Part shown: positions 7,814 to 57,853 of the stretch, piece after piece
How positions within the stretch are numbered: the first letter of the stretch is position 1
How the letters are laid out: every line of letters starts with the position of its first letter
NCBI GenBank assembly: GCA_003056085.1
Contig: LSNK01000004.1
Location: 28,326-92,325, forward strand
Direction of reading: 5' to 3'
Origin: Parcubacteria group bacterium M6-OD1-1
GTDB taxonomy: Bacteria; Patescibacteriota; Minisyncoccia; GWC2-36-17; M10-OD1-4
DNA length: 64,000 nucleotides
Made by a program: the position numbers and the translations under genes
The notes under the pieces: generated by a model
Databases searched by the model: none
Told to the model about the DNA's origin: nothing
What the model saw: the letters and a program-made list of their open reading frames with translations, nothing else

Positions 7814-8062
7814 ATGTCTGAGAAAAATGGATTTAAAGTATTTTATGCCATTTCTATTGCATTGCAGTTAGGATTCGTTATTGTATTTTCCATTATTGGA
7901 TTTTTGTGGTTGGGGGTTTGGGCTGATAAAGCGTTTGGAACATCCCCTCTTTTTTTGTTAACAGGAGTGATTGTGGGAATTACCATAACTATATATGAAA
8001 CATATCATATGCTTACGCCGTTAATAAAAAATAACTCAAAAGACAAAAAAGAAAATGATTAA
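7814..8062 (+). CDS. small membrane protein upstream of atpB (AtpI/AtpZ-like)
   Basis: 82 aa with 2 TM helices, immediately preceding and overlapping atpB. Assignment is by position. Confidence 0.4.
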   Translation: MSEKNGFKVFYAISIALQLGFVIVFSIIGFLWLGVWADKAFGTSPLFLLTGVIVGITITIYETYHMLTPLIKNNSKDKKEND

Positions 8063-8789
8063 TATAGCATTGCAGCAAGAATATATTTTTTCAGTATTTG
8101 GACTTAATATAACAAATACTTTTTTTACTTCCGTTTTGGTGTCTTTGGGTCTTATTTTATTGAGTATTTTTATTTATTTTAAAAAGAATAATGAAAAAGG
8201 TAAGTTGGTAAATGGAATGAGAGTTTTGATGTTTGAGTTGTTAAAGATGGTTGATGCGGTTACAGGTGACAGAAAACTCTCTAAAAAAGTTCTTCCCTTG
8301 GTGGCAACTTTTTTTATTTTTATTATAACTGCTAATCTTGTATCTTTGGTTCCTGGGTTTTTAGGGTCTTTTTTGATAAATACAGAGTCCGGACCGGTTA
8401 CCGTTTTGAAGTCGCCAAATAGTGACTTAACTACAACTCTGGCATTGGCGTTGTTTTCCGTTTTTTTTATACAGTTTTTTTCTTTAAGGGAGCTTGGTGT
8501 TAAAAGATATTTGGGAAGATTTTTTAATTTTACGAGCCCTATCAAATTTATTCTTGGATTTTTTGAAATTCTTTCCGAAAGCGTTAAAATTTTATCATTT
8601 TCCTTCAGATTATTTGGTAATATTTTTGCCGGAGAGATACTTCTCATTATTATTGCATTTTTAGTTCCTTTTATAATTCCTGTTCCGTTTATGCTTCTTG
8701 AAGTTTTTGTCGGTATTATTCAAGCCTTTATTTTTTCCATACTAACTTTGGTATTTATCAAAACCAGCATTGTAAAGTATGCCGAGTAA
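8055..8789 (+). CDS. atpB: F0 ATP synthase subunit a (operon 1)
   Basis: RLFGNIFAGE motif containing the conserved Arg. Multi-TM protein. Confidence 0.85.
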   Translation: MINIALQQEYIFSVFGLNITNTFFTSVLVSLGLILLSIFIYFKKNNEKGKLVNGMRVLMFELLKMVDAVTGDRKLSKKVLPLVATFFIFIITANLVSLVPGFLGSFLINTESGPVTVLKSPNSDLTTTLALALFSVFFIQFFSLRELGVKRYLGRFFNFTSPIKFILGFFEILSESVKILSFSFRLFGNIFAGEILLIIIAFLVPFIIPVPFMLLEVFVGIIQAFIFSILTLVFIKTSIVKYAE

Positions 8790-9047
8790 ATTATTAATAA
8801 TTAAGTTTAAAAATATGAGAAATAAATCAAAAAAAGAAATAAACAATTGGATTATTTCCGAGGTTTCATTTTTTGCATTTTTGTACTATGCACAATACCT
8901 TTTAGGCGTTGATGGAAGCTTGCTTTTTAGTACATTTATATTGTGGGCGTTATTGAATTTAACGATTGTTTTCTGTCCTGTTATGAAAGAGTGTTATAAA
9001 AAATAAAAATATTTATTATTTTAAATTATAATTAATCAAACAAAATT

Positions 9048-9263
9048 ATGTTACAAGATCCTTCCGCTTTTACAATGGCTATCGGAACCATAGGTCCCGC
9101 TTTAGCAATTGGTTTAATAGGGGCCGCTGCTATGTTTGCTATAGCAAGAAATCCTCAAAGTTCCGACAAGATTCAGGTTGCTATGATAATTTCTATAGCT
9201 TTTGCTGAGGCAATAGCTATTTACGCATTAGTTATGGCTTTAATTCTTAAATTTGTATCTTAA
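9048..9263 (+). CDS. atpE: F0 ATP synthase subunit c (operon 1)
   Basis: 71-aa helical hairpin with an ARNPQ loop and a carboxylate in helix 2 ([11 protein letters not shown]). No Q/S/T Na+ signature, so likely H+-coupled. Confidence 0.85.
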
Positions 9264-9270
9264 ATAAAAA

Positions 9271-55109: not shown

Positions 55110-56042
55110 ATGTCTTTAAAGGCGATTAAAAATAAAATAAAATCTATTAACAAGACAAGACAGGTGACTAAAGCAATGGAGTCTGTCGCTGCTGTTAAGA
55201 TGAGAAAAAGTCAAAAAACAGCATTTGATACAAGGCCTTACGCCATGCATGCTTTTGGAATATTAAAAAGAATAAGCGGGAGCATTGACGGCAAAAGCCA
55301 CTTTTTGATGCTGGAAAGGGAAGTAAAAAAAACATGTATATTTATAATCACAAGTGATAAAGGGCTCGCAGGAAGTTTAAACAGCGCAGTTATTAAAAAA
55401 GTTGTTCGGGAAATGGATAAGGACGGGCTTGATAAAGAAAATACAAGTTTTATATGTATAGGCAAAAAGGGTTATGAATATTTTTTAAAAAGGGGTTTTA
55501 AAATAGAAAAATATTATGAAAAGCTCGGAGAAAATGTTTCGGTAGAGCTTTTAAAAGAAGTTTCAGACCTTTTAGTCAGTCTTTATGAAAATAAAAAATA
55601 TGATAAATTTAAAATTTTTTATACAAATTTTATTTCAACAGCAGACCAAAAACCCGTAGCAAGAACAATTCTTCCCATAAAATATGATGAAGTCAAAAGA
55701 ATTATTAAGCGTATTTTGCCAAAAACGGGGAGATACTCTGAGTTTAAAAATACCATTGACATAGATCAAAGTGATGATGTGAGAGCGTATTTATTTGAGC
55801 CAAGCGCGAAAGATATTTTAAAAGAGCTCTTGCCGTTTTTATTGAATATTCAACTTTATTATTCACTTCTTGAATCTCAGGCGTCAGAGCATTCTGCAAG
55901 AATGGTTTCAATGAAAAATGCTTCAGATAAGGCAGATGAATTATCAAAAGATTTGAAGTTGGTGTTTAACAAAGCAAGACAAGCTTCCATAACAAGTGAA
56001 ATATCAGAAATTACCGGAGGCATTGAAGCATTATCAAATTAG
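55110..56042 (+). CDS. atpG: F1 ATP synthase gamma subunit (operon 2)
   Basis: MSLKAIKNKIKSINKTRQVTKAMESVAAVKMRK N-terminus typical of gamma. Confidence 0.8.
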   Translation: MSLKAIKNKIKSINKTRQVTKAMESVAAVKMRKSQKTAFDTRPYAMHAFGILKRISGSIDGKSHFLMLEREVKKTCIFIITSDKGLAGSLNSAVIKKVVREMDKDGLDKENTSFICIGKKGYEYFLKRGFKIEKYYEKLGENVSVELLKEVSDLLVSLYENKKYDKFKIFYTNFISTADQKPVARTILPIKYDEVKRIIKRILPKTGRYSEFKNTIDIDQSDDVRAYLFEPSAKDILKELLPFLLNIQLYYSLLESQASEHSARMVSMKNASDKADELSKDLKLVFNKARQASITSEISEITGGIEALSN

Positions 56043-56072
56043 TATAAGATTTTAACCATTTAACTATTTATT

Positions 56073-57461
56073 ATGAAAAATAAAGGAATTATAAAACAAA
56101 TTATCGGACCGGTGGTGGATGTTTATTTTGAAGACAATCTTCCGGATATTAACACAGCTTTAATTGTGGAGGCTGACAATAATGCCAAAAGAGGCAAGGT
56201 TGTTCTTGAGGTTTCTCAGCATTTAGGACTTAGCAGGGTGAGGTGCATATCTATGAATGAAACAGATGGCCTTAAAAGAGGAGATGAGGTTATAAATACG
56301 GGGAAGTTCATATCAGTTCCTGTTGGCGAGAAATCTTTAGGCAGATTATTTAATGTTTTGGGAGATGTGATAGATGAGGGGGAAGATATGCCAAAAGATA
56401 TAGAAAAATGGCCTATTCATAGAAAAGCTCCGGGATTTAAAGACCAAAAAACAAAAGCGGAAATATTTGAAACAGGTATTAAAGCGATTGATCTTATGAT
56501 TCCTTTTATTAAAGGCGGTAAGGTTGGTCTTTTTGGCGGCGCCGGTGTTGGGAAAACAGTATTGATTCAAGAGCTTATTCACAATATTGCAACCAATCAT
56601 GGAGGATATTCAGTTTTTGCCGGAGTGGGAGAAAGGGTAAGAGAGGGAAATGACCTTTATGCGGAGATGAAAGAATCGGGTGTTCTTTCAAAGACAGCTT
56701 TAGTGTTTGGACAAATGAATGAAGTCCCGGGAGCTCGTGCGCGCGTGGCGCTTTCAGGGCTTACAATGGCTGAATATTTCAGAGATGCTATGGGGAAAGA
56801 TGTTTTGTTTTTTATGGATAATGTTTTCAGGTTTATTCAAGCAGGCTCTGAGGTATCGGCGCTTTTGGGTCGTGTGCCCTCTGCTGTGGGTTATCAGCCA
56901 ACTTTGGCGGAAGAAATGGGTAAACTTCAAGAAAGGATTACTTCTACGAACAACGGCTCAATTACGTCGGTTCAGGCGGTTTATGTTCCGGCCGATGACT
57001 TTACAGATCCGGCTCCTGCAACAACATACGCCCATCTTGACTCAACGGTGGTGCTTTCGCGTTCTTTGGCGTCTCTGGGCATTTACCCCGCCATTGACCC
57101 TTTAGACTCAAGTTCAACAGCTTTAGATCCTTCTGTTGTGAGTGAGGAGCATTATAATGTGGCTATGGAAACAAAAAAAGTTCTGCAAAGATATAAAGAC
57201 CTTCAAGATATTATTGCGATTTTAGGCATTGAAGAATTGTCAGACGAAGATAAGCTTGTTGTTGGAAGAGCCAGAAAAATACAAAAATTTCTTTCTCAGC
57301 CATTTTTTGTCGGTGAGATTTTTACAGGAATTCCGGGGCAATATGTAAAACTTGAGGATACGATAAGAGGATTCAAAGAGATTATAGAAGGCAAGCATGA
57401 TGACAGAAATGAACAGGATTTTTATATGAAAGGGTCAATAAGCGAGGTTGTAACGAACTAA
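56073..57461 (+). CDS. atpD: F1 ATP synthase beta subunit (operon 2)
   Basis: [10 protein letters not shown] and DELSDEDK. Confidence 0.9.
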
Positions 57462-57616
57462 AAAATAAAAAATTTGAAAGTAAAAAATACTAAGCAGCAA
57501 GTAACAATAATCAAGAAACAAACAAATTTCAAGATACAATAACCAAAACGACGATGTATCTGTAATCCGTTTCTTATAATTTTTGTTTTACTCGCGACTT
57601 TATTCTTGTTTAAATT

Positions 57617-57853
57617 ATGTTTTTTTTAACAATAGCAAAAATAAATGAAACTTTGTTTCAGGGAATGGTAAGGTCAGTAAACTGTCCCGGAGTTGAGGGT
57701 GAAATGACCGTACTTCCAAACCATATTCCTTTGGCGACAATTTTAAAAGCTGGAGAGATAAGAATAAGAGTTGATGAGGACAAAGAGGAAAAGCTCAAAA
57801 TAGAAAAGGGAATACTTGAAATAAGCAAAAAAGAAGTTGTTATTTTGCTTTAG
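57617..57853 (+). CDS. atpC: F1 ATP synthase epsilon subunit (short, operon 2)
   Basis: 78 aa, beta-sandwich domain only. Confidence 0.65.
   Translation: MFFLTIAKINETLFQGMVRSVNCPGVEGEMTVLPNHIPLATILKAGEIRIRVDEDKEEKLKIEKGILEISKKEVVILL

Follow-up and report, generated by a model that had tools for sequence, protein, structure and literature searches.

Patescibacteria (the candidate phyla radiation, CPR) account for a large share of bacterial diversity, have genomes of ~ 1 Mb and mostly lack electron-transport chains. The role of the F-type ATPase in these cells is debated: it may draw on a borrowed gradient of protons to synthesise ATP, or it may hydrolyse ATP to keep the membrane energised. 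We analysed 64,000 nt of Parcubacteria group bacterium M6-OD1-1 (contig LSNK01000004.1, positions 28,326–92,325, forward strand), here called the window, which carries two sets of F1Fo ATPase genes, denoted set 1 and set 2. The reading that we favour, and consider probable, is that one Patescibacteria chromosome (CPR, Paceibacteria-like) holds two intact, anciently diverged, proton-coupled F1Fo ATPases; set 1 would belong to a discrete clade with a remodelled stator, and set 2 would be the ordinary enzyme. Set 1 and its relatives are called type 1 below, set 2 and its relatives type 2.

Canonical F1Fo enzymes, such as those of E. coli and Bacillus PS3, are encoded by operons of the order atpIBEFHAGDC. 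In known F-ATPases the N-terminal domain of delta grips the N-terminal helix of alpha. The N-ATPases have the order atpDCQRBEFAG, with AtpR as their hallmark; they also encode AtpQ (PF09527, which is not exclusive to them), lack delta, possess a long b subunit that contains the delta C-terminal region and a Na+-type c subunit with a second Glu, and are always a second copy (Dibrova, Galperin and Mulkidjanian, 2010; PMC2881411). In mycobacteria a b helix is fused to the delta module (PDB 7NJK, 7NKD and 9VKP, chain d). The Mycoplasma F1-like X0 ATPases (types 2 and 3; the MSC_0618/0619 and MMOB1660/1670 families) are divergent extra alpha and beta subunits in genome-reduced bacteria that also have a canonical F-ATPase.

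Set 2 resembles the canonical enzyme in all respects tested. Set 1 shares with it eight functional modules and their order, the catalytic and proton-path residues and a single-hairpin c subunit. It differs in that its beta and alpha are 46% and 40% identical to those of E. coli, whereas canonical betas share > 60% across phyla. It has no separate delta, its alpha lacks the delta-binding helix, and its first gene, which the first-pass annotation (an earlier reading of this DNA) had called atpI-like, is in fact of the AtpQ type (PF09527) and not an E. coli-type AtpI (PF03899). The C-terminal inhibitory domain of epsilon is missing from set 1, and from set 2 too. Like an N-ATPase, set 1 accompanies a canonical operon as a second F-type set and branches apart from canonical F-ATPases, and the Ala-rich packing motif of its c subunit resembles that of the Burkholderia pseudomallei c17 ring; it differs from N-ATPases in gene order, absence of AtpR, c residues, alpha helix, epsilon, hidden Markov model (HMM) scores and trees. 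The mycobacterial b-delta chain provides the best structural matches for a model of the set 1 b subunit, but it is ~ 445 aa long, contains a full delta with its N-terminal domain and works beside a separate b′, whereas set 1 has a single 274-aa protein that scores 25.5 bits against NCBIfam PRK13428 (cut-off 328). The Mycoplasma F1-like X0 ATPases, finally, have neither a nor c of Fo and do not act as ion-translocating rotary synthases, whereas set 1 has a full Fo; its beta and alpha fall below the corresponding HMM cut-offs (score/cut-off 453/570 and 285/520).

Two F1Fo ATPase operons on one contig

Open reading frames (ORFs) and Pfam matches show that set 1 (7814–14055) and set 2 (51160–57853) are each a complete and intact F1Fo ATPase on the + strand, with a significant Pfam match for every core subunit (Table 1). 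This agrees with the first-pass annotation, which had placed two full sets here on one strand ~ 37 kb apart. The gene order is PF09527 'gene 1', a, c, long b, alpha, gamma, beta, epsilon in set 1 and a, c, b, delta, alpha, gamma, beta, epsilon (atpBEFHAGDC) in set 2, and the two enzymes take up ~ 12 kb of genome. Between the sets the identities are 41% for a, 57% for c (partial alignment), 41% for alpha, 25% for gamma, 47% for beta and 29% for epsilon. The values of 41–47% for alpha and beta exclude a recent duplication; the operons are not the near-identical recent copies that had been considered as an alternative. Both sets keep the essential Arg of a (within the motif SFRLFGNIFAGE in set 1), the c Glu, the beta P-loop, the catalytic Glu of the GER motif, Walker B and the alpha Arg finger. 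Judged from the sequence, the two enzymes should both be competent for catalysis.

As had been proposed, the divergent copy is set 1. Its alpha and beta pass the NCBIfam equivalog cut-offs (score/cut-off 528/484 and 549/463); the other five of the seven subunits fall below (a 101.5/102.6, c 41.6/44.0, b 35.5/65.5, gamma 142.5/194.5, epsilon 49.1/67.3). Seven of the eight set 2 subunits score above theirs (a 103.5/102.6, c 61.2/44.0, b 76.9/65.5, alpha 731/484, gamma 277/194, beta 783/463, epsilon 68.9/67.3), and the short delta scores below (50.6/57.5). Short delta subunits are found throughout Paceibacteria: across 17 operons they measure 125–133 aa, and about the first third of the OSCP profile is missing.

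In neighbour-joining trees of alpha and of beta, set 2 lies within a CPR group (100% support) inside the canonical F clade. Relatives of its beta (beta-2) at 77–89% identity come from Yonath- and Kaiserbacteria, Paceibacterota and the 'Patescibacteria group'; in the genome collection, the nearest species is represented by a Candidatus Azambacteria metagenome-assembled genome (83%). A 142-kb contig of a relative (locus L006) is syntenic around set 2 and shares its rplJ-rplL-atp context. We place the host among Paceibacteria-like CPR bacteria. Set 2 is the ordinary F-ATPase of the lineage and, on the reading that we favour, vertically inherited.

Contigs derived from metagenomes can be chimeric, and we therefore weighed an assembly or binning artefact, in which operons of two organisms were joined on one contig. 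No independent contig among those readable bridges both sets across the 37 kb between them, and exact set 1 was not found in two assemblies that contain set 2. The composition of the window argues against such a join. GC content and GC at third codon positions (GC3) of both sets are inside the range of the other window genes, and relative synonymous codon usage (RSCU) of each set correlates with the background at 0.97. The tetranucleotide correlation between the first 16 kb, with set 1, and the last 16 kb, with set 2, is 0.96, higher than with any of eleven control CPR loci, close relatives included. The comparison of codon usage and GC that the first-pass annotation had recommended thus gives no compositional sign of a chimera. 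Across both operons the genes are on the + strand and the GC skew is positive. The 37 kb between the sets are core chromosome and encode a sigma-70 factor, a P-type metal ATPase, permeases, a SurA-like protein, ManC and UvrA, as well as RsmH, an FtsI-type penicillin-binding protein, a Mur ligase, a tRNA and rplJ-rplL.

Exact proteins of both sets are present in GCA_006243245.1 and in SRR6439372. In all, exact set 1 proteins occur in the metagenome assemblies VAPK01, VAPL01 and VAPM01 and the runs SRR6439370-72, and exact beta-2 in VAPM01, SRR6439372, SRR14803397 and GCA_003056185.1. Since both sets are in other assemblies of the sample series, they have been recovered independently. With these data we regard a joining artefact as very improbable.

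Set 2 varies in detail between strains and relatives. The spacer between its c and b genes contains two adjoining repeat arrays in an otherwise tight operon; their copy number differs in a ~ 99%-identical strain (L162), and a 100%-identical Logan contig (L161) begins inside the array, which suggests an assembly break. In the more distant relative L006 the c-b gap is only 25 nt. The ~ 99%-identical strain (GCA_003056185.1; L162, 3733–3986) has a 243-nt AT-rich insertion between gamma-2 and beta-2 (window 56043–56072), and it is without the 186-aa serine-hydrolase gene present at window 58479–59039 (compared over 58459–59103). In the closest type-2 relative (beta 89%; GCA_964365045.1; L157, 5748–7398), beta and epsilon are separated from the rest of the operon, and the genes upstream of them are unrelated, including one for an 842-aa LCAT-domain protein.

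Set 1 and the type-1 clade

The b subunit of set 1 had been described as a b-delta fusion. The fusion is real and is partial, with only the C-terminal domain of delta present. In a profile–profile comparison (hhalign), residues 200–272 of set 1 b align with residues 104–173, the C-terminal domain, of E. coli delta (probability 94.7%, E 6e-8). The AlphaFold model (pLDDT 85) has a transmembrane segment and long helix (11–169) and an alpha/beta domain (189–272); besides the mycobacterial chain, delta/OSCP C-terminal domains are its best structural matches. Set 1 b has no counterpart of the delta N-terminal domain, and a separate atpH and a second b gene are also absent from set 1. The long b is not peculiar to this genome: ~ 40 full-length homologues measure 241–289 aa, of which nine have precomputed double matches to ATP-synt_B and OSCP and one matches OSCP alone.

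The N-terminal helix of alpha, ~ 22 residues, is missing in all type-1 alphas examined (set 1 of the window and loci L003, L005, L165, L168, L171 and L172). It is retained in E. coli, set 2 and both reference N-ATPases. We suggest that the type-1 stator has been rebuilt in two matching ways, by a single long b that carries only the delta C-terminal domain and by loss of the alpha helix. As the delta N-terminal domain and the alpha helix are both lost, the type-1 stalk must dock on F1 differently. This paired loss is a variation on the attachment of a rotary stator, and it bears on the evolution of the peripheral stalk (F versus N versus A/V).

The first-pass annotation had rejected an N-ATPase for set 1 because the gene order is canonical. 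The conclusion was right, but gene order alone is insufficient, since set 1 has three N-ATPase traits: the AtpQ/PF09527 first gene, the long b with the delta C-terminal domain and the lack of atpH. Set 1 could thus be taken for an N-ATPase with a rotated operon, and the genome for one with the familiar pair of a canonical F-ATPase and an N-type second copy. QBEFAGDC is indeed a rotation of DCQRBEFAG, set 1 is the second copy in the genome, and the best NCBIfam match of its b is the alternate-F1Fo b model. However, there is no AtpR ORF in or next to set 1. Its c subunit is without ESTxxY and the helix-1 Glu, where the reference N-ATPases have VESTAIY/IETMAIY and GPALGEG. With the seven 'alternate F1Fo' NCBIfam models, set 1 falls well short of every cut-off (beta 528/752, alpha 441/750, gamma 62/282, a 98/302, c 45/131, b 63/225 among them). 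N-ATPases retain the alpha N-terminal helix and the epsilon C-terminal domain, both of which type 1 lacks. In the alpha and beta phylogenies with F- and N-ATPase references, which had also been recommended, set 1 groups with the N-ATPases of Picosynechococcus or Cereibacter in neither tree. An N-type identity is thereby largely refuted, and we give it hardly any credence.

The earlier observation that neither c subunit has the Na+-binding signature holds. The c subunit of set 1 reads E-A-I-x-x-Y (carboxylate Glu in AFAEAIAIY) and that of set 2 E-A-L-x-x-F, each with Ile in helix 1. Because the Na+ ligands are absent in both, both enzymes are predicted to be H+-coupled.

Homologues of the set 1 beta (beta-1) form > 120 clusters at 63–76% identity, and the named ones are Wolfebacteria, Woesebacteria and the 'Patescibacteria group'. 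In an exhaustive search of 1.84 billion representatives at 50% identity the type-1 clade is one protein (59% identity, 574 bits), and the next match is at 49% and 448 bits. Beta-1 is about equally far from E. coli (46%), from set 2 (47%) and from the two reference N-ATPases (44–49%), which are encoded on plasmids of Picosynechococcus and Cereibacter. N-ATPase betas are 51–52% identical to canonical betas, against 44–49% for beta-1, and type 1 is therefore further from canonical F-ATPases than the N-ATPase is.

Trees were built by neighbour-joining, the beta tree with 100 bootstraps and rooted on the paralogous subunit. A metagenome scan with a type-1 signature block matched on the universal Walker-B pattern [LF]F[IV]DNIFR; the matches listed were canonical betas (50–57% identity) with no type-1 locus among them, and they were reused only as diverse canonical references. 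Type 1 forms a 100%-bootstrap clade in the beta tree, outside the canonical clade (86%). In the alpha tree its support is again 100%; there the 44 canonical sequences together form its sister group (51%), and the N-ATPases branch outside both (86%). Within the beta tree type 1 sits among long-branch, weak or sub-threshold 'atpD' lineages. These neighbours were considered as mycoplasma-type or N-type enzymes and are neither; their weakly supported grouping with type 1 is probably long-branch attraction. Since the deep branching order differs between the trees, what we claim from the alpha and beta sequences is confined to three points: type 1 is discrete, it does not fall within the CPR type-2 group, and it is not an N-ATPase. 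There is no close solved structure for type 1, and the best PDB sequence match is an engineered ancestral-core F1.

The clade has consistent signatures. The order Q-a-c-b-alpha-gamma-beta-epsilon, with an AtpQ-type first gene, is shared by L003, L005 and L168. The L172 operon is arranged likewise except that it has no Q gene; the L165 contig starts just upstream of a, so that any Q gene would lie beyond its end. The unusual P-loop GDRKIGKSS of set 1 alpha, pointed out by the first-pass annotation, is confirmed and is a trait of the whole clade: the noncatalytic P-loop reads GDR[K/N][L/I]GKS[T/S] as against canonical GDRQTGKT, which still makes a valid Walker A, and the Arg finger is kept as well. 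Type-1 betas keep all catalytic motifs and have a dense signature block that includes YFGEMDK; DELSR.DR (DELSRSDR in set 1) replaces the acidic DELSEED-type loop. Gamma of set 1 is highly divergent, with 25% identity to set 2 and 22% to E. coli. The c subunit is near-invariant across hosts of 31–53% GC, and its helix-1 packing motif is Ala-rich, T-I-G-P-A-L-A-I-G versus V-I-G-P-G-I-G-I-G in set 2.

We found no literature on the type-1 clade, on a divergent F-type clade or on two F-type sets in CPR. The main study of ATP-synthase evolution sampled 33 CPR genomes and recorded only the presence or absence of the F-type. Type 1 is a distinct and widespread F-type clade that is apparently undescribed in the literature.

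Table 1. Coordinates of the two ATPase operons and associated elements in the window
Feature	Position	Strand	Remarks
Terminator-like hairpin, 12-bp stem and T run	7572–7598	+	ends upstream gene; 5′ boundary of set 1 unit
Set 1 AtpQ-type small membrane protein, 'ATPase gene 1'	7814–8062	+	PF09527 47.8 bits, cut-off 26.6
Set 1 Fo subunit a	8055–8789	+	PF00119, E 1e-36
75-aa hydrophobic ORF in a-c gap	8779–9006	+	status uncertain
Set 1 Fo subunit c	9048–9263	+	PF00137
Set 1 peripheral-stalk b fused to delta C-terminal domain, 274 aa	9271–10095	+	profile–profile comparison and structure model
Set 1 F1 alpha, 485 aa	10076–11533	+	Pfam/NCBIfam; Arg finger SVSR present
Set 1 F1 gamma, 285 aa	11573–12430	+	Pfam/NCBIfam
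Set 1 F1 beta, 466 aa	12435–13835	+	Pfam/NCBIfam; catalytic motifs intact
Set 1 epsilon, 77 aa, beta-sandwich only, without C-terminal helical domain	13822–14055	+	Pfam
Set 2 Fo subunit a	51160–51906	+	57 nt after rplL; no atpI/atpQ gene before it
Set 2 Fo subunit c	52027–52254	+	V-I-G-P-G-I-G-I-G; Glu in AFTEALAIF; no Na+ ligands
Two adjoining tandem-repeat arrays (~ 3 × 34/35 nt, then ~ 4 × 21 nt)	52309–52477	+	inside 314-nt c-b spacer 52255–52568
Set 2 subunit b, 153 aa	52569–53030	+	Pfam/NCBIfam
Set 2 delta, 130 aa, N-terminally short	53063–53455	+	OSCP profile positions 69–170 of 172
Set 2 F1 alpha, 523 aa, N-terminal helix present	53514–55085	+	Pfam/NCBIfam
Set 2 F1 gamma, 310 aa	55110–56042	+	Pfam/NCBIfam
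Set 2 F1 beta, 462 aa, canonical	56073–57461	+	TIGR01039 783 bits; 65% identity to E. coli
Set 2 epsilon, 78 aa, beta-sandwich only	57617–57853	+	Pfam/NCBIfam
GC-rich inverted repeat and T run directly after epsilon-2	57879–57919	+	likely set 2 terminator

The long a-c gap that had been reported for set 1 exists as described, but it is not empty and contains the 75-aa ORF. This ORF matches no Pfam or NCBIfam family and has no membrane Arg, and related type-1 operons outside this species have no counterpart. We considered it as an AtpR-like or extra subunit and did not adopt this, given the lack of a family match and its absence from the type-1 operons of other species; its status is uncertain.

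Downstream, a gene for a 702-aa VTT/DedA + PAP2 + LssY_C membrane fusion protein (14062–16170) starts 7 nt past epsilon-1. The short spacing and the lack of a terminator in between suggest that it is probably co-transcribed with set 1; this gene is not found beside the type-1 operons of other species. Upstream, a 99.2–99.6% identical strain in VAPM01 (L174) is without 1,385 bp directly before set 1 (window 6185–7569). The deletion removes the gene of a 291-aa SPFH/Band-7-like lipoprotein (6672–7547) and ends at the terminator hairpin.

Elsewhere in the window, a 1816-aa ORF (27781–33231) probably encodes a surface protein, with LamG, fibronectin-III and Ig-like domains. The one strong compositional anomaly of the window (GC skew to −0.24, AT skew to +0.35) falls at this ORF. 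Upstream of the sigma-70 gene, ~ 2.2 kb (18390–20647) hold only ORFs of ≤ 94 aa and have no Rfam match, an unusually low coding density. An Rfam scan of the window returned one tRNA (45532–45603) and nothing related to the operons.

Origin and distribution of set 1

The tree positions, and F1 subunits that are about equally distant from all other F-types, speak for a separate old lineage. A duplication within CPR is a tentative alternative that we take seriously: type 1 would then derive from an ordinary CPR F-ATPase by fast evolution of F1 and stalk, and its outside position would be a long-branch artefact. The a subunits of the two sets are close to each other and to CPR a (140–184 bits, 41–44%), compared with a median of ~ 60 bits for typical bacterial a. 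The epsilon C-terminal domain is absent in both CPR types, all named type-1 matches are Patescibacteria, and the deep nodes are poorly supported and differ between the trees. However, type 1 is nested in the CPR type-2 clade in neither tree, and it is also found on contigs of 1.4–1.5 Mb with 49–53% GC. The similarity of a and c could also reflect shared composition or membrane environment.

Lateral acquisition would make set 1 an accessory operon, and its donor would be a different CPR lineage that has type 1 as its only ATP synthase. The closest relatives of beta-1 are at 76% and ~ 72%, as against 89% and 87% for beta-2, a difference that could also mean a faster evolutionary rate. The flanks of set 1 are not syntenic with other type-1 loci, and the strain-level 1.4-kb indel described above abuts it. 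No long contig of the close type-2 relatives agrees in length with any contig among the best 120 beta-1 matches, and in two near-identical strains exact look-ups did not find set 1. On the other hand, its composition is fully native, no mobile-element genes flank it, and elsewhere type-1 operons lie among core genes. We consider such a transfer rather unlikely.

The best 120 matches of beta-1 and the best 120 of beta-2 have no contig in common except that of the window itself. It is a weak indication that close relatives do not, as a rule, carry both types.

Several observations weigh against the reading that we favour, in which an old and discrete second enzyme shares one chromosome with the ordinary one. 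The two near-identical strains, SRR14803397 and GCA_003056185.1, yield set 2 and not set 1 in an exact look-up; set 1 could be strain-variable, or these assemblies could be incomplete. A scan of the genome collection with concatenated beta-1 and beta-2 as query gave 66 loci; all were of type 2, and none had type 1 within 10 kb of it. In that scan three beta-1 peptide patterns matched nothing and no assembly prefix occurred twice, so that it bears on taxonomy and not on co-occurrence. The Fo subunit a of set 1 looks CPR-like. The alpha and beta trees disagree on where type 1 branches at depth; their deep nodes are weak and long-branch attraction is possible. The stalk also varies within the type-1 clade. 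The b subunit has 119 aa in L171, 127 aa in L168 and 329 aa in L165.

These three loci differ in other respects as well. In L171 (6335–11603) the short b is without a delta-like domain and there is no AtpQ gene, and in L168 (5889–11603) b is preceded by an extra 66-aa membrane ORF; the L165 operon spans 362–6376. A second instance of dual carriage was sought in JGI sample 3300039233, which contains a type-1 contig (L005) and a type-2 contig (L006). We rejected the idea that they are one genome, which likewise counts on the negative side: GC is 37.4% versus 32.6%, and the tetranucleotide correlation between them is 0.77 versus 0.89–0.93 within each contig. The two are probably from different organisms.

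Possible proton gearing and cellular role

Changes from Gly to Ala in the packing motif of c helix 1 accompany larger c-rings, and the c17 ring of B. pseudomallei has AxGxAxAxG (PMC5376962). The type-1 c subunit is near-invariant and has such Gly-to-Ala changes, which in studied c-rings raise the stoichiometry. We speculate that the two enzymes differ in H+/ATP gearing, in direction or in both, and that each is used under conditions of its own. Where a cell has no respiratory chain, one might be an ATP-driven proton pump, for instance, and the other an ATP synthase for low proton-motive force (pmf). Our preferred version is that type 1 would be geared to a higher H+/ATP ratio, for synthesis at low pmf or for high-flux pumping, with set 2 as a complementary and differently regulated enzyme. 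With rings of unequal size, simultaneous operation of both enzymes would amount to a futile cycle. Two cautions add to the points against our reading: the size of a c-ring is not reliably readable from sequence, and what we say on direction, ion-to-ATP ratio and division of labour is wholly conjectural.

The 64-kb window encodes no respiratory components. Other type-1 loci offer a concrete lead on function. In L172 (633-kb contig, 49% GC; 1310–11628) the type-1 operon starts 37 nt after a cluster that encodes a cyoABCD-like haem-copper oxidase and haem O synthase, and the two may form a single respiratory operon. The oxidase cluster comprises COX2, COX1, COX3 and COX4_pro together with UbiA/haem O synthase, and the type-1 operon there is without an AtpQ gene. 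The type-1 operon of L003 is followed by a gene for a cupredoxin. With an oxidase cluster beside it in one case and a cupredoxin in the other, type 1 is plausibly a pmf-consuming synthase in these two organisms. A type-1 operon next to a haem-copper oxidase in one genome is what gives this lead its substance.

Type 1 is at present annotated simply as 'F0F1 ATP synthase', and the generic models for alpha and beta are the only ones whose cut-offs it reaches. Surveys of F-type presence or absence in CPR therefore merge two different machines. A genome with two intact and deeply different F-ATPases is a natural test case for separating the ATP-making role from the membrane-energising one, and a conserved division of labour between two enzymes, if true, would raise the interest of the finding. 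The most far-reaching possibility, which we regard as speculative and quite unlikely, is that type 1 is a third major F-type lineage beside the canonical F and N types, centred on Patescibacteria, without docking between the delta N-terminal domain and the alpha helix, with an enlarged c-ring, and acting here as a differently geared partner of the canonical enzyme, for instance by making ATP at low pmf next to an ATP-driven pump. If this were true, it would mean a two-gear proton economy in a respiration-less cell with a genome of ~ 1 Mb.

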